Positions 3,730 through 37,112 of a DNA stretch of 64,000 nt are shown here, piece by piece. The translations under genes and the position numbers were made by a program. Under the pieces are notes generated by a model, which was given only the letters and a program-made list of their open reading frames with translations, was not told where the DNA came from and did not search any database. Source of the DNA: Gammaproteobacteria bacterium (lineage in GTDB: Bacteria; Pseudomonadota; Gammaproteobacteria; SZUA-140); contig JADLET010000084.1 in the NCBI GenBank assembly GCA_020845975.1, positions 2,509 to 66,508 on the forward strand. Direction: 5' to 3'. Every line of letters starts with the position of its first letter. Position 1 is the stretch's first letter.

Positions 3730-4209
3730 ATGAAACAGCTCGCCATCTATCCCGGCACCTTCGATCCCATCACCCATGGGCACACCGATCTCGTCGAGCG
3801 TGCCGCCCGTGTGTTCGAGCGCGTCATCGTCGCGGTCGCGGCCAACCCGGTCAAGGCGCCGACCTTCTCGCTCGCGGAACGGATCCGCCTGGCCGAGGCC
3901 GTGCTGGGCGGGATCCAGGGCGTCGAGGTATGCGGCTTCGACCGCCTGCTGGTGGAATTCGCGCGCGAACACCAGGCCTCCATCATCCTGCGCGGACTGC
4001 GCGTGGTCTCGGACTTCGAATATGAATTCCAGCTCGCCGGCATGAACCGCAAGCTGGACCCGGGCATCGAGACCCTGTACCTGATGCCCGCCGAACAATA
4101 CGCCTATATCTCATCCAGCCTGGTCAAGGAAATCGCCTCCCTCGGCGGCGACATCTCCGCCTTCGTGCACGAAGGCGTCATGGCTGCGCTGTACAAAAAG
4201 ATGCGTTAA
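3730..4209 (+). CDS. coaD: Phosphopantetheine adenylyltransferase
   Basis: [25 protein letters not shown] is the canonical CoaD N-terminus with T/HxGH nucleotidyltransferase motif. 159 aa. Confidence 0.95.
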
Positions 4210-4246
4210 GCTTCGTTAATTCGCTCCACTGCCCAATCTGATGTGA

Positions 4247-4513
<267 letters not shown>

Positions 4514-4520
4514 TGCCGGC

Positions 4521-6263
4521 ATGACGCCTCGAACCGCGCCTTCGACCCTGGTCCGCCCCGCCGGAGCGGGGATCGGTGGCGTCGGGCGCGCGCTCCTCGC
4601 CGGCCTGCTTGTTCTCGTCACGGGGACCCATGGCGCCTTCGCGCAGGCCGCTGACACACAAACCCCGTCCGCGGCCGCAGTCGCCTCCGCCCACCCGCTT
4701 GCCACCCGGGCGGGTCATGACATCCTGCAGGCGGGAGGTAATGCCTTCGATGCCGCGGTGGCGGTTGGCGCGATGCTGGCGGTGGTGGAACCGACCGGCT
4801 CCGGACTCGGCGGCGGCGGCTTCTGGCTGCTGCACCGCGCCGCGGACGGTCGGGAAATCATGCTCGATGGCCGCGAACGCGCACCGCTCGACGCGCATGC
4901 GGATATGTACCTGGACACAGACGGCGCGGTAATCCCTGCCGCGTCGATCAACGGCGCGCTGGCGTCGGCCATCCCCGGCACACCGGCCGCCCTGGCGCAC
5001 CTGGCCAGTCAGTACGGACGCCTGCCGCTGGCGCGCAGCCTCGCCCCCGCCATCCACGCCGCCCGCGAGGGGTTCCCCGTCGACGCGCATTATCTTCAAC
5101 TGGCGCGCTTCCGACTGGAGGCGCTGCGCCGTTCACCCGCCGCCGCGGCCATCTTCCTCGATCAGGGTGATCTGCCGAAAGAAGGTTACATCCTGCGGCA
5201 GCCTGATCTGGCGCGGGCGCTGGAGTCGATCGCCGGGCACGGGCATGCGGGTTTCTATGCAGGCCCGTTGGCCCAGGACCTCGTCGATGGCGTGCGTGCG
5301 GCGGGGGGCATCTGGAGCCTGCGCGACCTCGCCGGCTACCGTGTCGTCGAACGCGAACCGGTGCGAGGCGAATATCGCGGCATACGCATCACCACGGCCG
5401 CGCCCCCGTCCTCCGGCGGCATCGCGCTCGTCACCATGCTGAACATCCTCGCCGGTTATCCCCTCGAGGACCTCGCCGCGCCCGACCGCGCGCACCTCGT
5501 CATCGAGGCCATGCGCCGTGCCTACCGCGACCGCGCCGTCTACCTCGGCGACCCGGACTTCACGGAGGTCCCGATGGAAGTATTGCTGTCTCCGGCCTAC
5601 GCGGCCGGCCTGCGCAACGCCATCCGCCCCGATCGCGCCACGCCGAGCGCGATGCTCCCCGGTGTCGCGGCCGATGCGACGGGCACGGACACCACCCACT
5701 TCTCGATCCTGGATCGCGCCGGCAATCGCGTGGCCGCGACGCTGTCGATCAATCTCCCCTTCGGGGCCGCCTTCATGCCGCCCGGCACCGGGATCCTGCT
5801 CAACAACGAAATGGATGATTTCTCCATCAAGCCGGGCGTGGGCAATTCCTATGGCCTGGTCGGCGCGCAGCCCAATGCCATCGCACCGGGCAAGCGGCCG
5901 CTTTCGAGCATGACGCCGACCTTCCTCGACGATGGCCGCCGGATCGCGATCCTCGGCACGCCGGGAGGCAGCCGCATCATTACCATGGTACTGCTGGCCG
6001 CACTCGACTTTCAGCGTGGCGCCCCACCGCGGGAATGGGTGGGGTTGCGGCGTTATCACCACCAGTATCTGCCGGATGTCGTGAGCTACGAACCGGGCAC
6101 ATTCAGCGCGGACGAGACAGCGGCCCTGGCCGCGCGCGGGCATACGCTCGAGGAACGCACACGTCCTTACGGCAACATGCAGGCGATCCTGTGGGACCGC
6201 GCGGACAATCGCGTCAGCGCCGCGAGCGATCCACGCGGTGGTGGCACGGCCGAAACTCGCTGA
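4521..6263 (+). CDS. ggt: Gamma-glutamyltranspeptidase
   Basis: Signal peptide. TTHFSILD catalytic threonine region and GGSRIIT motif. 580 aa. Confidence 0.9.
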   Translation: MTPRTAPSTLVRPAGAGIGGVGRALLAGLLVLVTGTHGAFAQAADTQTPSAAAVASAHPLATRAGHDILQAGGNAFDAAVAVGAMLAVVEPTGSGLGGGGFWLLHRAADGREIMLDGRERAPLDAHADMYLDTDGAVIPAASINGALASAIPGTPAALAHLASQYGRLPLARSLAPAIHAAREGFPVDAHYLQLARFRLEALRRSPAAAAIFLDQGDLPKEGYILRQPDLARALESIAGHGHAGFYAGPLAQDLVDGVRAAGGIWSLRDLAGYRVVEREPVRGEYRGIRITTAAPPSSGGIALVTMLNILAGYPLEDLAAPDRAHLVIEAMRRAYRDRAVYLGDPDFTEVPMEVLLSPAYAAGLRNAIRPDRATPSAMLPGVAADATGTDTTHFSILDRAGNRVAATLSINLPFGAAFMPPGTGILLNNEMDDFSIKPGVGNSYGLVGAQPNAIAPGKRPLSSMTPTFLDDGRRIAILGTPGGSRIITMVLLAALDFQRGAPPREWVGLRRYHHQYLPDVVSYEPGTFSADETAALAARGHTLEERTRPYGNMQAILWDRADNRVSAASDPRGGGTAETR

Positions 6264-7196: not shown

Positions 7197-7693
7197 GATC
7201 AGCGCTCCACGCAGAAGGGAGCAGAGGGGGATGAAACGGTCGCGCTCCGCCGTCAAGCACCCGCACGCACTGGACTGGTCCGGTCCCGGCTCGACTGCCG
7301 TGGCGACGAGGATGCGGTCCCGGGTTCCGCTTCTCCCCGGATACGGCGACACCGCCGTCATCACCGCCCTCTATCCGCTCTCCCATACACCATCGCGTAC
7401 ATGGTCCGGCCGCACCCCGGGCGCATGACGTCACCCGCGTTTCTCCCCGGGCAAGGATGTCCATCGGGGAAACCGGCGCGGTCCGGCGGGTCTCCGCCGG
7501 ACCGCACCGTAATCCCGCCAGTCAGGCGGGATGCAGGCAAGACACCGGTCGCACCGCCATGGAAGCGGTCGCCCGTCCGCAATCCGCAGCATATCCGGCC
7601 ATGGCACAAACGGGATGCCGACAACCTGCGACACGTAACAGACAGCGGTCATCCTCACGCACGCACGCAACGGCCGGATAACGGTACGACATG

Positions 7694-7764: not shown

Positions 7765-8892
7765 ATGATCACGATCGCCATCGCCAATCAAAAGGGGGGA
7801 TGCGGCAAAACCACCGCCGCCATCAATCTGGCCGCCGCGCTGGGACGCAATGGCCATCGCGTACTGCTGGTCGACACCGATCCCCAGGGCCATGCCTCGC
7901 TGGGACTGGGACAACACTGCGGCAATCTGAACGGATTGTACGAGGTATTCATCCAGGAAGCAGAGCTCAGCGAGGTCATCATCCCCGCGGTAGCGCCCGG
8001 AGTCGATCTGGTGCCGTCGACCATCTCGCTCGCCGCCATCGAACACCTGCTGGCGGATCTGCCCCGCCGCGAGCGCCAGCTCGCGCAGCATCTGGACAGC
8101 CTGCCCCTGAACTACGACTTCGCCATCATCGACTGCCCGCCCACGCTCGGCCTGCTCTCATTCAATGCCTTGCGCGCCGCGGACCTGGTGCTGATACCGG
8201 TGGAGATGAGCGTGTTCGCGCTGGACGGGGTGGACCGCCTGCGTGACACCATCGAACTGCTGGCGGAAAAATACGAACTCGACATACCGGTACGCATACT
8301 GCCCAATCTGGTTGATCACCGCACCCGCTTCACGCAGGACACGCTGCATCGCCTGAAGGAGCGCTTCGGCGAGGAGATCCTCCCGGTGAGCATTCACTAT
8401 ACCGTGCGACTGAAGGAGGCCGCGGCGCGCGGCATACCCATCATCGATCACCAGCCCGGCTCGGTGGCGAGCGACAATTATCTCGCCCTGGCGGCGGAGA
8501 TCCTCCGCTTCAATGCGCAGACCATGCCTCGCGCACAGTCCGCGCGCGCTCCGTACGACGTCCCCCTTCCCGTCAGCCGCACTGTGGAAGAGCCGGATGA
8601 CGCGGATTACCGGCGGGACGTCAGCATGATCTTCCACGGACCCGCCGGGATCGATATCCAGATCGCCGGCGACTTCAACGGCTGGGCGCCCGATCAGGGG
8701 GTGGTGACGGAACGTCATGACGACATGCTGATCAAGACCCTGCATGTCGGTCCAGGACGCTATCAATACCGCCTGATCGTCAACGGGGAATGGCGCGCCG
8801 ACCCCACCAACCCGCGCTTCGAGACCAATGAATACGGCGAGATCAATTCCGTGCTCGAAGTGGAGGACATCCCGCACCTCGTCCCCGCATGA
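7765..8892 (+). CDS. ParA/MinD-family (deviant Walker A) ATPase fused to a C-terminal AMPK-beta glycogen-binding-like (CBM48/E-set) domain
   Basis: Start placed at the ATG giving MITIAIANQKGGCGKTT (KGGxGKT deviant Walker A), with GGAGGG SD 9 nt upstream. The ORF-track ATG at 7723 lies inside the terminator T-tract. The C-terminal ~90 aa VSMIFHGPAGIDIQIAGDFNGWAPD...GPGRYQYRLIVNGEWRADPTNPRF...NSVLEV matches the AMPK1_CBM/CBM48 consensus (F.W.G..V.L.GSFNNW...G.HQYKF.VDG.W..DP..P). Confidence 0.8.
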   Translation: MITIAIANQKGGCGKTTAAINLAAALGRNGHRVLLVDTDPQGHASLGLGQHCGNLNGLYEVFIQEAELSEVIIPAVAPGVDLVPSTISLAAIEHLLADLPRRERQLAQHLDSLPLNYDFAIIDCPPTLGLLSFNALRAADLVLIPVEMSVFALDGVDRLRDTIELLAEKYELDIPVRILPNLVDHRTRFTQDTLHRLKERFGEEILPVSIHYTVRLKEAAARGIPIIDHQPGSVASDNYLALAAEILRFNAQTMPRAQSARAPYDVPLPVSRTVEEPDDADYRRDVSMIFHGPAGIDIQIAGDFNGWAPDQGVVTERHDDMLIKTLHVGPGRYQYRLIVNGEWRADPTNPRFETNEYGEINSVLEVEDIPHLVPA

Positions 8893-10229: not shown

Positions 10230-10883
10230 ATGCAGGACTATCAGCAGGCCTTTCTCGACTTCGCCATCGCCCGCGGCGTGCTGCGCTTCGGCGAGTTCAC
10301 CCTAAAGTCGGGGCGCCTGAGCCCGTATTTCTTCAACAGCGGACTGTTCGATGACGGCGACGCCATCGCCGAACTGGGGCGCTACTACGCGGCCGCGATC
10401 CGCGCTTCCGGCATCGCCTTCGACATGCTGTACGGCCCGGCCTACAAGGGCATCCCGCTGGTCGTCGCCACCGCGATCGCGCTCAGCGACCGCCACGGCG
10501 TCAACGTCCCCTACGCCTTCAACCGCAAGGAGGCCAAGGACCACGGCGAGGGCGGCATCATCGTCGGCCGCGCGCTCACGGGCCGCGTGCTGATCATCGA
10601 CGACGTGATCTCCGCCGGCACCTCGGTGCGCGAATCGGTGGACATCATCCACCACGCCGGCGCGACCGTGGCCGGCGTCGCCATCTCACTCGACCGCCAG
10701 GAACGCGGCAAGAACGCGCAGTCCGCCATCCAGGAGGTCGAGGCGCAGTTCGGCATCAAGGTCGCCAGCATCGCCAACCTCGACACGCTGATCCGCTATA
10801 TATCAAAGCGCGCCGATCTCGGGCCAGTGCTGGAACGCATCGAGGATTATAGGAAACAATACGGCGCAAAAGGCGCAGCCTGA
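10230..10883 (+). CDS. pyrE: Orotate phosphoribosyltransferase
   Basis: [36 protein letters not shown] and the PRPP-binding [13 protein letters not shown] motif. 217 aa. Confidence 0.95.
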
Positions 10884-10891
10884 AGAAATCA

Positions 10892-10899
10892 ATAGTAGC
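10892..10899. repeat. 8-bp direct repeat ATAGTAGC, left copy, at the left edge of the low-GC insertion
   Basis: Identical 8-mer found again at 11965-11972 at the right GC transition. Candidate target-site duplication. Confidence 0.35.
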
Positions 10900-11056
10900 C
10901 CAGATGAAGGCGCAGAGCGCCGGAATCCGGGAGCATCTATCTAAGACAATCCCCGGATTCCGCTACGCTTCATCCAGGCTACGCTTGCTGTCATTGTCCA
11001 AGGCCAGCAGTTCGATCCCACACAAAGTTGGCCTCGCAAGAAACACTCAACCCAAC

Positions 11057-11476
11057 CTAGGCCTGTTTCAGCGACACTCCATCCGGAATGTAATGCACAT
11101 TGCTTTGGAATTGCTCCCGCCAGCTCCAAAGGTATTCGGTTAGTTTCTGAACTCGGTTTTTACTTAGACAATTCACAGACTGGTCTTGAGTTATGAATTG
11201 AAATAGCTCTTGACCAACATCCTCTCGGCACCACATTGAAAATTTCGTGAGTTCATTTAGTTCTCGATAATTGATTGCCAACGTCATTGGCTCGAATTTT
11301 ATTCTGCTCAGAGCATGGACAATTGCAGTCCGTTCGTAAGAAACACCTAATCTTACACACATCTGCTCGGCCACGTCTGCCCCTGCAAGCCCTTTCTCCC
11401 ACGCCTTATCCGCATTAACACACAGGTACATTAGAAATGCAGACCATTCTCCTGATACTTCAATTTGTCGGCCCAT
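11057..11476 (-). CDS. Hypothetical protein B of the low-GC two-gene cassette (139 aa)
   Basis: ~40% GC. Start placed at the ATG with GAGGAGG SD 10 nt upstream; the ORF-track first codon is TTG. The SD overlaps the stop codon of upstream gene A. No recognisable domain. Confidence 0.6.
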   Translation of the reverse strand: MGRQIEVSGEWSAFLMYLCVNADKAWEKGLAGADVAEQMCVRLGVSYERTAIVHALSRIKFEPMTLAINYRELNELTKFSMWCREDVGQELFQFITQDQSVNCLSKNRVQKLTEYLWSWREQFQSNVHYIPDGVSLKQA

Positions 11477-11491
11477 AACTTCCAAGCCTCC

Positions 11492-11884
11492 TCAAATTGT
11501 GGCATTGAAATATTGCTTCAAGCTTGTGTTAATCCCACCAGACGCATACGTAACAATATGAGTTGACGTGTCAACTGATACAAATTTAATTCCCGGGTGG
11601 TGTCTATCTTCGTATGTGCCGGGGTTATTGTAGATCTCCTGCATAACAGAAACTGGCATTAGATAATACACGGCGGCACTTCCACAAACCCATAGCTCGT
11701 AGTCAGCGGATAACGTGTTTGGATTGATATTGAACTTGTATTTTTCTGGAGCGCGCGAACTCTGAGAACAGAACCGAACATGAACTATGGAACCTTTAAT
11801 CTTATATTTGGCTTTTCCAAGGAAAGAAATATCTGACCCATTTGCAATCACCGATAATGCAGATTTCTTTTCTGCAGTGCTCAT
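11492..11884 (-). CDS. Hypothetical protein A of the low-GC two-gene cassette (130 aa)
   Basis: ATG with AGGA 8 nt upstream (aaaaggaaaacgccATG). AT-rich codon usage unlike the host. No recognisable domain. Confidence 0.6.
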   Translation of the reverse strand: MSTAEKKSALSVIANGSDISFLGKAKYKIKGSIVHVRFCSQSSRAPEKYKFNINPNTLSADYELWVCGSAAVYYLMPVSVMQEIYNNPGTYEDRHHPGIKFVSVDTSTHIVTYASGGINTSLKQYFNATI

Positions 11885-11964
11885 GGCGTTTTCCTTTTCA
11901 AATGATAATTCAACGTAATTAGAATTCGACAGCCTTGACGTATAAATCTACCAATCTAATTCAT

Positions 11965-11972
11965 ATAGTAGC
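11965..11972. repeat. 8-bp direct repeat ATAGTAGC, right copy, at the right edge of the low-GC insertion
   Basis: Same 8-mer as 10892-10899. Lies 5 nt upstream of the tauE stop codon region. Confidence 0.35.
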
Positions 11973-11976
11973 GCCA

Positions 11977-12732
11977 TCACCCAACCACCAGCTTCACCCC
12001 CACCAGCAGCGTCACCACCTCGAACGCACGCTTGATCATTTGGTTACCCTGCGCGATCGCGATGTGCGCGCCGAGGTAGCCGCCGATCAGTGAACCGAGC
12101 AGCAGCGCGGGCAGCCAGTCCCAGCGTACCGCCGCCTGCAGGCCGAGGGCGAGCGCGCCGGCGCCGTTCCAGAACAGGCCGACCAGGATCAGCGTATAGG
12201 CGACCGCGCGCTTGTAGTCGAAGCCGAACCAGCGGATCAGCCACAGGGTCGCGAACAACCCGGTCCCGGAGGACAGCGATCCGTTGACGACCCCGATCAG
12301 GAACAGGCATGCCCCGCCGATCATGAATCCGCGCCGGTCGCGATGTCGCGGCTGGTGTTCCTGACCGAGGCCCGGCTTGAGCCAGGAATAGATCCCCAGC
12401 CCCAGGGTAAGCAGGCCGAGCGTGACCTGGGCCGCGCGATCGGGGACCAGCAGGATCAGGCGCGCGCCCAGCACCACCCCGGGCAGGCCGGCGACCAGCA
12501 TGAAGCCGGCGAAGCGCCGCTCCACCCCGCCTGCCTTCAGATATCGCAGGGTCGCGCCGATACCCAAGGCAACCGTTGCTATCTTGTGCGTTGCGAGCGC
12601 CGTGCCGAAAGGCAGGCCAAGAAAGATCAGCACAGGCAGCTGGATCAGCCCGGCCCCACCCCCGGACAGGGCCGAGAACATGTTCGCCACGAGTGATATG
12701 GCAAACAGGATCAACTGGCTCAACCAGTCCAT
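11977..12732 (-). CDS. TauE/SafE (TSUP) family sulfite/anion exporter-type permease
   Basis: Poly-TM protein with duplicated halves and GxGGG-like motif (SALSGGGAGLIQLPVLIF). 251 aa. Confidence 0.8.
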   Translation of the reverse strand: MDWLSQLILFAISLVANMFSALSGGGAGLIQLPVLIFLGLPFGTALATHKIATVALGIGATLRYLKAGGVERRFAGFMLVAGLPGVVLGARLILLVPDRAAQVTLGLLTLGLGIYSWLKPGLGQEHQPRHRDRRGFMIGGACLFLIGVVNGSLSSGTGLFATLWLIRWFGFDYKRAVAYTLILVGLFWNGAGALALGLQAAVRWDWLPALLLGSLIGGYLGAHIAIAQGNQMIKRAFEVVTLLVGVKLVVG

Positions 12733-13462: not shown

Positions 13463-13478
13463 CTCGCCGCGGCCTCAG

Positions 13479-13563
13479 AAATTTTGGGTCAGAGTAAAAA
13501 CTCGCCAAGGTTCGAAGTCGAAGCGCGGAACAGTGGCAGAGTTTTTACTCTGACCCCAAATTC
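13479..13563. terminator. Long inverted repeat/hairpin between the convergent DUF4124 gene and argB; likely bidirectional terminator
   Basis: Arms aaattttGGGTCAGAGTAAAAACTC (13479-13503) and GAGTTTTTACTCTGACCCcaaatt (13540-13563) with a ~36-nt loop. Confidence 0.5.
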
Positions 13564-13564
13564 C
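13523..13564. repeat. 42-nt direct repeat copy 1 (gcgcggaacagtggcagagtttttactctgaccccaaattcc), in the argB 3' region
   Basis: Identical 42-mer recurs at 14495-14536, 27 nt upstream of the argB start. Confidence 0.7.
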
Positions 13565-13574
13565 CCCAAATTCC

Positions 13575-35933: not shown

Positions 35934-37112
35934 TCAGTATGCCCCCACGTGACGCTGCAGGACGCGACGCGACTCGAGATCGATCCGGAGCAGCAGTCCC
36001 ATGGAAATACATGCGGCCAGCATGCTGCTGCCGCCATAGCTCATCAACGGAAGCGTGAGCCCCTTGGTGGGCAGCAGCCCCATGTTCACGGCGATGTTGG
36101 TATAGGCCTGCAGGCCGAACCACAGGCCGAGCCCGCTGGCCAGGTAGGCCGCGAACGGTTTGCCGGCCTGCTCTGCGCGGCGCGCGATCATGAAGCTCTT
36201 GGCCACGATGAAGGTAAACAACGCGATCACCGCGACCGAACCCGCAAGGCCGAGCTCCTCGGCAATCACCGCAAACAGGAAATCAGTGTGCGCCTCCGGC
36301 AGATAGAACAGCTTCTGGATGGAGCCGCCCAGGCCGACACCGAACCATTCGCCGCGCCCGAACGCGATCAGGGCCTGGGTAAGCTGGAAACCGCTGGCGA
36401 AGGGATCGGCCCACGGATTCAGGAAGGCGGTGACGCGCGCCATGCGATATGGCGACGAAACCGCGAGCACGGCCAGGGCGCACAACACGAATACCAGCAG
36501 CACGCCGAACTGCCAGATGCGCACGCCGCCCAGCAGCATCATGCCCATCGCTGTACCCATGAGCACCGCTGCAGCCCCGAAATCGGGCTCCGCCAGCAAT
36601 AACACACACAGCACTGCGAGCACGGCCATCGGCTTGGCGAATCCGCGCACCGCGTTGCGCACCTCGTCGCCGCGCCGCACCAGGTAGCCGGCGAGATAAA
36701 TGAACGTGAACAGCTTGGCGAATTCCGACGGTTGCACCCTCGCAACGCCAAGCGACAGCCAGCGCGTACTGCCGTTGACCTCCCGGCCGACTCCGGGCAT
36801 CAGCACCAGGATCAACAGCGCGAAGGCGGCGATGAGCAGCTTGCCGCTATGCCGTTCGAGGAACTCCAGCGACAGGGATGCGTAGATGAGAAACCCCGCC
36901 AATGCGCTTACACCAATATAGGCAATCTGATGCATCAGATAGTAGCTCGGCTGACCCAGCTCGCGCTCGGCGACGCCAAAGGAGGCGGAGGCCATCATCA
37001 CCAGGCCGAAACCGAGGGTGATCATCACTGCGTAGAGCAAGCCCATATCAACGCCCGGAGAATCGTCTCCCCGCACGGCGCGCTGTCCATGTGCAAGCAA
37101 CCGCGCGATCAT
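35934..37112 (-). CDS. ftsW: Peptidoglycan glycosyltransferase FtsW (SEDS family)
   Basis: 10-TM SEDS pattern. Position between murD and murG. 392 aa. Confidence 0.93.
   Translation of the reverse strand: MIARLLAHGQRAVRGDDSPGVDMGLLYAVMITLGFGLVMMASASFGVAERELGQPSYYLMHQIAYIGVSALAGFLIYASLSLEFLERHSGKLLIAAFALLILVLMPGVGREVNGSTRWLSLGVARVQPSEFAKLFTFIYLAGYLVRRGDEVRNAVRGFAKPMAVLAVLCVLLLAEPDFGAAAVLMGTAMGMMLLGGVRIWQFGVLLVFVLCALAVLAVSSPYRMARVTAFLNPWADPFASGFQLTQALIAFGRGEWFGVGLGGSIQKLFYLPEAHTDFLFAVIAEELGLAGSVAVIALFTFIVAKSFMIARRAEQAGKPFAAYLASGLGLWFGLQAYTNIAVNMGLLPTKGLTLPLMSYGGSSMLAACISMGLLLRIDLESRRVLQRHVGAY

Follow-up and report, generated by a model that had tools for sequence, protein, structure and literature searches.

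The spacer between the convergent genes pyrE and tauE is a small hypervariable hotspot in an uncultured gammaproteobacterial clade, and in the window that we analysed (the whole stretch of 64,000 nucleotides) it holds a low-GC stretch of foreign cargo with two small minus-strand genes, A and B (Table 1). The best explanation, to which we give a probability of roughly 0.6, is that this cargo is an integron-type cassette lodged in a clade hotspot, in which gene A would encode a DNA-binding protein of PD-(D/E)XK fold and gene B a possible partner. As an element the islet is of a familiar kind, and its cargo is mildly novel.

Table 1. Coordinates of the flanking genes, backbone elements and cargo at the pyrE–tauE locus.
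Feature	Position	Strand	Description
pyrE (orotate phosphoribosyltransferase)	10230..10883	+	PF00156, E 1.5e-11; conserved left flank of the hotspot
Left ATAGTAGC copy	10892..10899	+	Host backbone (hairpin 1: 5' flank and initial stem bases), not the junction of an insertion
Hairpin 1	10895..10982		REP-like imperfect palindrome, G+C-rich, just after the pyrE stop; clade backbone
Decayed backbone remnant	11003..11056		GCCAGCAGTTCGATC ... GTTGGCC-16 nt-ACCCAAC; alignable with hairpin 3 of L176 and L093
Gene B	11057..11476	-	139 aa; helical orphan, translationally coupled to gene A
Gene A	11492..11884	-	130 aa; predicted PD-(D/E)XK-fold protein of an unnamed family travelling as integron cassette
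Core-like site GTTGAAT (GTTRRRY)	11908..11914	-	Precedes the gene A ATG by 24 nt; putative cassette junction (G|TT) on the tauE side
tauE-proximal backbone	11915..11976	-	GATTTATACGTCA...GTCGAATTCTAATTAC; conserved with L177 and L180; holds the right ATAGTAGC copy
tauE (sulfite exporter TauE/SafE family)	11977..12732	-	PF01925, E 3.7e-43; conserved right flank

The pyrE–tauE spacer is a hypervariable hotspot

The predicted fall in GC content between pyrE and tauE is real (from about 0.66 to 0.41–0.45, with GC3 falling from about 0.87 to about 0.42). The flanking genes have GC contents of 0.656 (pyrE) and 0.665 (tauE) versus 0.448 for gene B, 0.410 for gene A and 0.348 for positions 11885–11976, and a compositional check marks the segment as foreign by GC3 (0.44 in gene B and 0.41 in gene A, against 0.89 in pyrE and 0.86 in tauE). 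It is the only strong low-GC segment in the window. Searches of open reading frames and family models bear out that the spacer carries two small genes and neither an integrase nor a transposase, and no integron integrase was found in the 64-kb window; scans of the islet for sigma-70 promoters, intrinsic terminators, Rfam families and tRNAs were uninformative. Transcription of A and B probably either reads through from tauE or starts in the AT-rich 92-nt leader, and ends at the hairpins.

Close relatives were drawn from the protein database, and the hotspot set comprises genomes with PyrE 87–96% identical to that of the window; a scan of GTDB species representatives with PyrE reached 68% identity at best and gave only family-level 'empty' sites. 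The relatives' loci L176–L182 have pyrE orthologs of 87–96% identity, tauE orthologs and the same synteny as the window. Six spacer states are seen among relatives in this range: an empty one, A-B, and four unrelated cargoes, namely a 618-nt AT-rich spacer (L176), a 223-aa gene (L177), a SHOCT gene (L178 and L179) and three genes (L180). The empty state is a 25-nt spacer in a within-clade relative whose PyrE and TauE are both 87% identical (L181/L182), and more distant relatives keep convergent pyrE and tauE with spacers of about 5–300 nt; together with the different cargoes of the other close relatives, these short spacers support the predicted foreign insert. The A-B pair occupies the pyrE spacer in this window, in Logan contigs L093–L095 and in one JGI contig (2,037 nt), which carries a 36-aa upstream gene fragment at the place of tauE, then A (78% identical), B (62%) and pyrE. 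It is patchily distributed, being absent from relatives whose PyrE is 96% and 93% identical and present in one at 90%. The flanks are 76–89% identical at the DNA level across relatives, and in all occupied sites the cargo lies on the tauE strand, between the tauE-proximal backbone and a REP-like hairpin beside pyrE. With conserved flanking core genes and alternative cargo that includes an empty state, the locus has the makeup of a genomic islet.

Alignment with these relatives narrows the insert from its predicted limits of 10892–11972. Homology to L176, L177 and L178 ends at position 10983 and returns at 11965–11986, leaving non-homologous sequence only from 10984 to about 11965, and the cargo proper spans about 11057–11913. 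On the pyrE side, hairpin 1 is kept at 86–91% identity in L176–L180, with a second copy in L177 at 6–74, and is missing from the L181 empty site; the fold over 10884–11062 has a dG of -60 kcal/mol (z -4.3). Hairpin 1 has no match in Rfam and is probably a bidirectional terminator or a dispersed repeat. Like REP/BIME-type extragenic palindromes, it is a G+C-rich imperfect palindrome between convergent genes, conserved at the site and present again in L177, whereas within the 64-kb window it is single-copy. The remnant at 11003..11056, read on the minus strand, consists of an R'-like core GTTGGGT (11056..11050), 16 nt and an R''-like box; as an attC site it scores only 4.3 bits with our attC model R1, and a GTTGGGC...GCCCAAC junction motif of the same kind lies directly 3' of the L177 attC. 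Hairpins 2 and 3 were at first read as plain REP elements and then tested as attC sites, for which their boxes are in the wrong order (R' before R'') and model R1 gives no score; they are better read as putative junctions between adjacent attC sites. On the opposite side of the cargo, L093 retains GCTACTAT beside the tauE stop.

A model in line with the original prediction takes the islet for a non-autonomous transposable element of about 1.1 kb, covering 10892–11972 and bounded by a duplication of ATAGTAGC. Exact 8-mers do lie near both gene ends (10892–10899 and 11965–11972, with a third copy at 36939 and 0.31 copies expected per window), at a chance of about 0.005–0.017: an exact 8-mer is common to both 30-nt junction windows in about 0.5% of shuffles (1.7% with 50-nt windows), and to 1.3% of comparably spaced 30-nt pairs across the 64-kb window. 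The shared 8-mer is unusual, but as a post-hoc observation it is weak. Both copies lie in host backbone and neither is at a cargo junction. The left one, 160 nt from the cargo boundary, falls within the hairpin, and 10892–10983 is conserved beside pyrE in L176, L177, L178 and L180 despite their different cargo, the position of the 8-mer reading ATAGTAGC in L176, AATGTAGC in L177 and L180 and AATGTAAC in L178. Nor does this copy mark a GC transition as claimed, since the GC content of 10892–10999 is 0.56 and composition drops only from about 11000–11060. The right copy, 51 nt from the cargo boundary, sits in backbone common to L177 and L180, which read GGTTACA and GATTATA at its position. An empty site with a single 8-mer had been expected; the L181/L182 spacer is GCGAATCCGCGCCGCGGCGGGCAAG (25 nt), with no hairpin and no ATAGTAGC between pyrE and tauE, an outcome that refutes the prediction on its own terms. 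The islet has no terminal inverted repeats and no transposase, and there are no further copies of the element in the window, plasmids, phages or viral contigs. As neither a gene A profile run against viral contigs nor tblastn of A and B against plasmids and phages gave a match, the suggested plasmid or phage origin is without support. We infer that the ATAGTAGC repeat is a coincidence in host sequence with no part in the insertion, and a transposable element is hardly credible here. The lesson for the scan is that a tidy-looking 'target-site duplication' was coincidental, and that the element is defined by relatives and not by the repeat.

Integron-type features of the cargo

Sister loci at the same site carry attC sites. 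Model R1, whose training set included these three sites, scores them at 60.3 and 59.2 bits in L180 and 39.1 bits in L177, all on the cargo strand; it also recovers true attC sites outside its training set (L002 and L003), and the L177 and L180 sites align with the R'', L'', L' and R' boxes of attC sites from integron arrays. Since the cargo genes are each followed by a canonical attC and there is no integrase, L177 is a SALIN (one attC) and L180 a CALIN (two attC).

The gene A family sits in integron cassette arrays in other genomes. An identical 506-bp gene A unit is present in L001 and in L002/L004, with 428 bp retained in L003; it runs from G|TTGGGC to a terminal 87-nt attC, and L001 encodes an IntI-type integrase with the KYPNAAREWAWQYVF patch. 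We find attC adjoining gene A in at least 10 independent loci, each top match being on the gene strand, and GTTRRRY occurs at -60..-11 of gene A in 15 of 70 loci versus 2 of 70 on the opposite strand. The place homologous to the core-like site of the window reads GTTAGAT in L177 and GTTAGGG in L180, and the cargoes diverge beyond it; at the other end, G|TTGGGT (11056..11050) comes after the gene B stop, where the relatives' cargoes diverge. These two junction matches are weak on their own, because GTTRRRY is degenerate and occurs about once per kb by chance.

The window cargo (about 11057–11913) would then be a two-gene integron-type cassette that an integron integrase inserted in trans, through attC x secondary site or attC x attC recombination. 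Recombination within the conserved flanks may later have carried it from one lineage to another, and the attC of this cassette would have decayed or may overlap the 3' end of gene B. The lack of a local integrase, for which the original prediction had allowed, is compatible with either way of moving integron-type cassettes, through an integrase in trans or through homology of the flanks. Several observations count against this explanation. With filters off, model R1 finds no attC in the window islet, L093, L176 or L178 (at most 9 bits) or across window positions 10700–12200 (at most 4.3 bits), and the sole R''...R' pairing, 96 nt long with GTTGGGT at its end, has no L boxes and falls within the coding sequence of gene B; because no attC is detected in the window, a decayed cassette is proposed rather than demonstrated. 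The window holds no integron integrase, and its divergence from L093 is equal in tauE (90% identity), A (94%) and B (90.5%), which fits vertical descent rather than recent integrase activity. Most stand-alone copies of gene A also lack a conserved neighbour, and B occurs without A (L090 and L091).

Homologous recombination alone, acting on the pyrE and tauE flanks of DNA acquired by transformation or transduction, might instead have brought in and exchanged the cargo, with no integrase role in this lineage and with coincidental core-like motifs. We give this reading a clear minority weight. The flank identity, the patchy cargo among relatives, the lack of attC and intI in the window and the equal divergence of flank and cargo from L093 all suit it, but it leaves unexplained the canonical cargo-strand attC sites of L177 and L180 at this very site, the existence of gene A as a cassette family in other genomes and the apparent divergence of cargo exactly at core-like G|TT sites. 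Flank recombination is moreover only partly a rival, as it may still move an occupied allele between strains.

As an integron-type cassette, the islet resembles SALIN, CALIN and attG insertions (Cury et al. 2016, PMC4889954; Loot et al., 10.1101/2022.09.11.507474). Its genes are small and promoter-poor, have a foreign composition and all point the same way, and no integrase is close by; at the pyrE–tauE site itself, the sister locus L177 has a single canonical attC and L180 has two; arrays elsewhere include gene A homologs as cassettes, in one case beside intI; and cargo junctions at this site appear to fall at G|TT core-like sites. It differs in that the window copy has no detectable attC, the cargo carries two genes, the site is a recurrent clade-wide hotspot and not a one-off insertion, and the role of an integrase in the window's lineage is conjectural.

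Gene A as a candidate DNA-recognition domain, and gene B

Gene A is a compact, undescribed family without a Pfam model, and comprises only about 150 clusters at 50% identity among 1.84 billion representatives. Neither A nor B matches Pfam, NCBIfam, PADLOC or PHROGs (the sole line is one PHROG at E 0.13), and PDB sequence searches with profiles of A, B and the fused C-terminal domain gave no significant match. The model of gene A has a confident predicted PD-(D/E)XK fold, which places it by fold with that superfamily, and a BFVD search with this fold found just weak PD-(D/E)XK-like phage proteins. The conserved residues (H35, R37, N52, N54, D61, E63, W65 and D93) are the same in stand-alone and fused forms. 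No conserved residues have the spacing of the catalytic E of helix 1, D of strand 2 and (D/E/Q)XK of strand 3; D61 and E63 lie together on a strand, and an invariant Trp takes the place of the 'K'. Gene A is predicted to be a dimer-sized PD-(D/E)XK-fold protein without canonical catalytic spacing, and judged by motif spacing alone it would be catalytically inactive.

The gene A domain is N-terminal in about 20 fusion cluster representatives, and the partner is recognised in 17: 10 HNH domains, 5 NucS-like PD..ExE..K C-termini, one McrB (NF008457, E 7e-58, aligned to McrB 163–452) and one NOV_C. The HNH parts match a PT-DNA restriction endonuclease model at positions 157–245. In these fusions the domain appears to stand where McrB and phosphorothioate-dependent HNH enzymes have an N-terminal domain that binds modified DNA. 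This N-terminal place beside nuclease and motor modules suggests that it is a DNA-recognition module of Type IV restriction-like enzymes. Most likely it would bind DNA via a conserved polar and aromatic beta-sheet face (H35, R37, N52, N54, D61, E63, W65), and the bound DNA is possibly modified. Homologs lie in dozens of unrelated loci with no shared flanks, mostly beside housekeeping genes or orphans; an all-against-all BLAST of 130 flanking ORFs, and Pfam on 73, revealed no recurrent neighbour. One homolog is followed by a DUF4258 gene.

Gene B is a lineage-restricted orphan. It is coupled to gene A by a GGAGG inside the end of A, with the B ATG 15 nt after the A stop, and is under purifying selection (dN/dS 0.26). 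It bears no similarity to the C-terminal domains fused to A, and its homologs without A include one in L091 behind small TPR/Sel1 genes. Gene B, translated together with A, may be a lineage-specific effector or partner of it, although conserved neighbours are lacking beside most stand-alone copies of gene A.

Two-gene cassettes in chromosomal integrons are often toxin-antitoxin or addiction pairs, and A-B might stabilise its cassette in this way. Translational coupling of two small genes in a cassette-sized unit, purifying selection on B and the DUF4258 gene after one gene A homolog are in keeping with such a role, but A-B matches no toxin-antitoxin or defence model in Pfam, NCBIfam or PADLOC, gene A is alone in most loci, B also occurs without A, and the two are not co-inherited as a pair outside the clade, as partners of known Type II families would be; an addiction pair seems improbable. 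It is somewhat less doubtful, though still unlikely, that gene A is an active small nuclease, either a stand-alone BisI-like Type IIM/IV enzyme or a structure-specific one, with B as unrelated cargo or an inhibitor. Gene A usually stands alone, is an orphan without a methyltransferase like the modification-dependent enzymes (PMC11347163), and conserves the acidic D61, E63 and D93 together with H35. The usual catalytic positions argue otherwise: helix 1 lacks a conserved Glu, core strand 2 does not open with an Asp, core strand 3 has no (D/E/Q)XK, a single strand carries both D61 and E63, and a Trp is invariant at the 'K' position. The domain is also repeatedly fused to dedicated nuclease or motor modules, in the usual place of a sensor domain, and has no sequence match to PD-(D/E)XK Pfam families or PDB sequences. 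Compared with NhoI and Eco15I of the BisI family (PDB 8q5n, 8q5m; PMC11347163) and with PvuII, gene A has 11–15% identity and no HMM match, a single N-terminal helix, and no conserved counterparts of the WD/AD ... QxK motifs or helix-1 Glu; by sequence and by the PD...QxK motif it falls outside the BisI family. A free-standing homing endonuclease like I-Ssp6803I (PDB 2ost), which would have cut the pyrE–tauE spacer, copied itself in and so supplied the missing mobilising function, is very improbable. Gene A does occupy this locus in three lineages, but it is not within an intron or intein, its homologs are found in dozens of unrelated loci without common flanks or a conserved target, the family moves as attC-bearing cassettes, unrelated cargoes occupy the same spot, and gene A has diverged in step with its flank. 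Identity to I-Ssp6803I is 13%, the catalytic motif is not conserved, the canonical catalytic residues appear to be absent, and no Pfam PD-(D/E)XK family matches.

Relation to restriction and defence systems

Modification-dependent (Type IV) restriction enzymes are modular, joining a sensor domain to HNH, PD-(D/E)XK or McrB modules (PMC11347163), as in the EVE-HNH enzyme VcaM4I (PMC7897488). Within its fusions the gene A domain has the N-terminal place of the SRA, EVE, winged-helix, NEco and sulfur-binding sensors, and like these enzymes gene A has no methyltransferase partner. The window protein differs in being a sensor-like domain alone, with no nuclease domain, and its predicted fold is PD-(D/E)XK-like, not PUA, winged-helix or NEco; a sensor joined to a nuclease or McrBC-type motor is seen in the roughly 17 fused relatives and not in this single-domain protein. 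Integron cassettes of previously unknown function have been found to encode phage defence (10.1101/2024.07.02.601719; PMC12614218). Gene A resembles these in being small and cassette-borne, with a predicted nuclease-superfamily fold and restriction-type domain partners, and differs in matching no PADLOC model. We suggest, tentatively and as one of the less probable parts of our account, that gene A is an undescribed reader of DNA (possibly modified DNA) with a degenerate PD-(D/E)XK fold, which is plugged into HNH, NucS-like, NOV_C and McrB effectors, and that stand-alone cassette copies with a variable downstream partner (here B) form a two-component anti-phage module.

The pyrE–tauE locus offers a naturally occurring case of a chromosomal site at which integron-type cassettes land repeatedly with no local integrase, with empty, single-cassette and multi-cassette states in one clade, and it informs how cassettes spread outside integrons, as at SALIN, CALIN and attG sites. 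To judge by its domain partners, gene A may be a new specificity module of modification-dependent restriction enzymes. Should this hold, the reader domain could be of use in detecting DNA modifications, and there would be more evidence for cassettes of unknown function as a reservoir of defence genes. If gene A is indeed an anti-phage reader, the pyrE–tauE spacer would serve the whole clade as a landing pad for these cassettes, with no integrase resident there.

Arrangement and composition of the pyrE-tauE spacer

pyrE and the tauE-family gene are convergent, and the 1,093-nt spacer between them contains, in order from pyrE, the elements listed below. Genes A (PD-(D/E)XK fold) and B (an orphan) share the minus strand with tauE; the ribosome-binding site of gene A is AAGGAAAA, and 15 nt that include GGAGG separate its TGA stop from the gene B ATG. 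The region of hairpin 1 (10884-11062) folds with a dG of -60 kcal/mol (z -4.3). The original prediction of a low-GC spacer carrying two small genes and no integrase holds: G+C is 0.348-0.448 in gene B, gene A and the leader against 0.656 and 0.665 in the flanking genes, GC3 of genes A and B is 0.41-0.44 against 0.86-0.89 in the flanks, and neither an intI nor a second segment as A+T-rich as this islet was found across the 64-kb window.

Features of the pyrE-tauE region of the window
Feature	Position	Strand	G+C	Description
pyrE	10230-10883	+	0.656	PF00156
Hairpin 1	10895-10982		0.58	G+C-rich imperfect palindrome right behind the pyrE stop
Repeat remnant	11003-11056			short, decayed
Gene B	11057-11476	-	0.448	139 aa
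Gene A	11492-11884	-	0.410	130 aa
Leader	11885-11976		0.348	A+T-rich, 92 nt
tauE-family gene	11977-12732	-	0.665	PF01925

PyrE identity among GTDB species representatives is 68% at best, and four of these retain convergent pyrE and tauE, with spacers of ~5, 40, 80 and 300 nt. Close relatives (PyrE 84-96% identical) were taken from a large protein collection; their gene order is retained to either side (Exo_endo_phos, ParA-like, pyrE, tauE, DUF4124, AA_kinase, PGM), and they differ in the spacer. By blastn against L176, L177 and L178, homology with the window ends at 10983 and restarts at 11965-11986. The tauE, A and B genes also occur together in three Logan contigs (L093-95), whose nucleotide identity with the window is 89%, and the equal divergence between the window and L093 (identities of 89.7% for tauE, 93.9% for A and 90.5% for B) indicates that the three genes have descended together since the split.

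Spacer contents in close relatives
Locus	Identity	Spacer
L176	PyrE 96%	A+T-rich 618-nt segment, no called gene
L177	PyrE 93%	223-aa gene without Pfam match
L180	PyrE 93%	three genes: 121 and 240 aa (both without Pfam match), 130-aa LprI
L178/L179	PyrE 90%	SHOCT gene, 126 aa
JGI contig, 2,037 nt	PyrE 90%	36-aa upstream gene fragment (tauE position), A (78% identical), B (62% identical), pyrE
L181/L182	PyrE 87%, TauE 87%	empty: pyrE TGA, 25 nt, tauE stop

Both L177 and L180 come from assembly GCA_016716465.1, so that one MAG holds two versions of the locus, one with a single cassette and the other with three, suggesting either strain heterogeneity or the binning of two populations as one. The L180 tauE is split into two tblastn segments and is thus frameshifted or misassembled. 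Repeats also occur nearby and in a distant relative. A ~90-nt repeat at 13470-13565 of the window, between the DUF4124 and AA_kinase genes, matches L177 at 7233-7325, 8221-8312 and 8227-8309, in both orientations, and looks like a second dispersed REP-like family of the clade. The spacer of L032 (4645-4945; PyrE 62%) holds another REP-like hairpin (GTAGGGTGCGTATTACGCACCG...) in four copies, and extragenic palindromes appear to be drawn to the convergent-gene spacer in several lineages.

The 8-bp repeat and the boundaries of the cargo

The original prediction placed an insertion at 10892-11972 and read the 8-mer at its ends as consistent with a target-site duplication. Both copies of ATAGTAGC are present (10892 and 11965), and in shuffled sequences an 8-mer is common to both junction windows with P ~0.005-0.017; the left copy, however, does not mark the compositional boundary, since it overlaps the first stem bases of hairpin 1. 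This hairpin and its 5' flank are conserved in L176, L177, L178 and L180 irrespective of cargo, with ATAGTAGC at the 8-mer position in L176, AATGTAGC in L177 and L180, and AATGTAAC in L178; a further copy of the hairpin lies elsewhere in L177. The right 8-mer lies within a tauE-proximal backbone that can be aligned among the window, L177 and L180 (GGGCGCTACTATA, GGGCACGGTTACA and GGGGGCGATTATA respectively, then GATTTATAC(A/G)TCA...GTCGAATT.TA.TTA), and the empty site of L181/L182 has neither hairpin 1 nor the 8-mer. Lack of the 8-mer at an empty site is an outcome that the original prediction had itself named as refuting it. From the conserved flanks and the empty site it follows that both copies are host backbone and that neither abuts the cargo proper, which spans only ~11057-11913. 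We therefore reject insertion of a transposon with target-site duplication: the 8-mer is almost certainly not a duplicated target. A third copy, at 36939-36946 within ordinary high-GC, apparently coding DNA, illustrates that the 8-mer can recur by chance.

Integron-type sites beside gene A and at the pyrE-tauE locus

The gene A homolog P0066 is identical in four contigs that have exactly 506 bp in common (100% identity between L001 and L002). This unit starts at G|TTGGGCC, 25 nt upstream of the ATG, and ends with an 87-nt hairpin running from GCCCAAC, 1 nt past the stop, to GTTAGGC; it is a textbook integron cassette with its attC recombination site. Its neighbours in L001 form an array of small ORFs on one strand, every one of them with such a site behind it. 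The array lies downstream of a tyrosine recombinase in divergent orientation (339 aa; PF13495 and PF00589), whose sequence includes a KYPNAAREWAWQYVF insertion typical of integron integrases. A covariance model, R1, trained on 14 attC sites found in the analysed loci, also retrieves true sites outside its training set in L002 and L003. In the 74 gene A loci scanned, the model places an attC adjoining gene A in L001, L097, L099, L104, L131, L140, L143, L150, L161 and L165, and its top matches are all on the gene A strand. A GTTRRRY core site precedes the gene A start by 11-60 nt in 15 of 70 non-redundant loci, whereas the opposite strand has one in 2 of 70 and ~3 are expected. The 506-bp cassette, the adjoining sites and this enrichment together identify gene A as an integron cassette family. 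We note that in L002/L004 (5395-10393) an IS110 transposase, an AAA_15/AAA_21 (OLD/AbiEii-like) ATPase and a fragment of a group II intron maturase come after the gene A cassette, with another attC at 8210-8281; a ribonucleotide reductase gene adjoins this mosaic, in which a cassette array is mixed with further mobile or defence genes.

At the pyrE-tauE locus, R1 gives 60.3 and 59.2 bits to two L180 sites and 39.1 bits to a site in L177, all three being members of its training set; independent support comes from the motif-and-fold scan by which they were first detected and from alignment of their R''/L''/L'/R' boxes with integron attC sites. Each lies on the cargo strand immediately 3' of a cargo ORF, and in published terms L180 is a CALIN and L177 a SALIN (an attC cluster and a single attC, respectively, without integrase; PMC4889954; 10.1101/2022.09.11.507474). 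Just past the conserved motif of the backbone and a core-like site (GTTGAAT at 11914..11908 of the window, GTTAGAT in L177, GTTAGGG in L180), the cargoes of these three loci part ways. The pyrE-side cargo end reads G|TTGGG(T/C) for the window as well as for L176 and L177, but G|TTGAGC for L093. Hairpins 2 and 3 consist of an R' box, 13-16 nt and an R'' box, and so have the appearance of a junction between two adjacent attC sites. With filters off, R1 detects no attC in L093, L176 or L178, or in the window islet (at most 4.3 bits), where the sole R''...R' pairing sits within the gene B coding sequence; these results, like the lack of an intI in the 64-kb window, count against a cassette origin of the islet. 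Relative to L093 (140-150), the window has 36 additional nt at 11885-11920 (AAGGCTGTCGAATTCTAATTACGTTGAATTATCATT) upstream of the gene A ribosome-binding site; these include the backbone motif and GTTGAAT and are missing in L093-95, so that the nearest A-B-carrying relative has lost the putative junction.

The islet is an element of known kind, foreign DNA in an intergenic hotspot, and is most likely of integron-cassette origin with no local integrase. The spacer would serve as a landing pad for cassettes across the clade, and A-B would be a cassette whose own attC has decayed; our confidence in cassette-derived cargo within a hotspot is about 0.6. A plausible partial alternative is that homologous recombination between the flanks exchanges occupied alleles.

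Gene families and the likely role of gene A

Only five homologs of gene B were found: two accompany A at the pyrE-tauE locus, and the others lie behind small TPR or Sel1 genes (L091/92, L090). The L090 copy (4134-4542), split by a frameshift, follows RadC, Sel1 and DUF1281_C genes in a RadC/DUF1281 region typical of the leading regions of integrative or conjugative elements, so B-like genes are not confined to the pyrE-tauE site. Gene B is predicted, with low confidence, to be helical, and yielded no informative structural or family match; its dN/dS (0.26; 0.56 for gene A) indicates purifying selection. That A and B form a split fusion, A as sensor and B as effector, is offered as a hypothesis only.

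The homologs of gene A number at least 179; almost all are of ~130 aa and none has a Pfam domain, and an exhaustive profile search of 1.84 billion representatives gave only 150 clusters. In hosts whose GC ranges from 35 to 70%, gene A is usually richer in A+T than the DNA around it, and stand-alone copies have no conserved neighbour, the downstream ORFs being unrelated orphans or housekeeping genes. Its comparison list comprises NhoI (7.2), MepB (7.1), Hjc (6.6), PvuII (6.4) and the Eco15I N-terminal domain (6.1). The canonical catalytic set of the PD-(D/E)XK fold, a helix-1 Glu, an Asp that opens strand 2 and (D/E/Q)XK in strand 3 (PMC11347163), is not conserved across the family. Residues conserved family-wide are H35, R37, N52, N54, D61, E63, W65, C67, G68, Y74, P77, P88, Y91 and D93, and the alternation of several of them along three neighbouring strands suggests that these probably line one face of the sheet.

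In ~20 cluster representatives the gene A domain is N-terminal in a longer protein, joined to HNH or HNH_2 (10), McrB (one, P0294), NOV_C (one) or a PDIIF...VEVE...QAxKYK C-terminal domain weakly similar to NucS (five); three more long proteins (P0352, P0363, P0390) have no recognisable partner. In the HNH fusions P0252 and P0371, the C-terminal part aligns to 157-245 of the NCBIfam 'phosphorothioated DNA-binding restriction endonuclease', and P0294 matches NF008457 (E 7e-58) over McrB 163-452, which covers the GTPase part but not the DNA-binding domain of McrB. P0294 is a 624-aa metagenomic protein in which a second region of ~150 aa (residues 160-300, FWRK...FFYFKL...IVGRG) follows the gene A domain and by eye resembles PUA/EVE-like reader domains; if it is one, two putative sensors would sit on one GTPase motor.

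The N-terminal position matches that of modification-sensing domains in modular Type IV enzymes (PMC11347163; PMC7897488), and fused and stand-alone forms share one set of conserved residues; on both grounds the most likely role of gene A would be recognition of DNA, possibly of modified DNA. The family may instead have an unconventional active site, and we lean only slightly towards a DNA-recognition module rather than a nuclease. Neither the landing site nor the gene A family is a new category. What is new is a multi-state landing site documented in an uncultured clade, together with a compact protein family that is carried on cassettes and lacks a Pfam model; the domain architecture of this family points towards a new specificity module in restriction-like enzymes.
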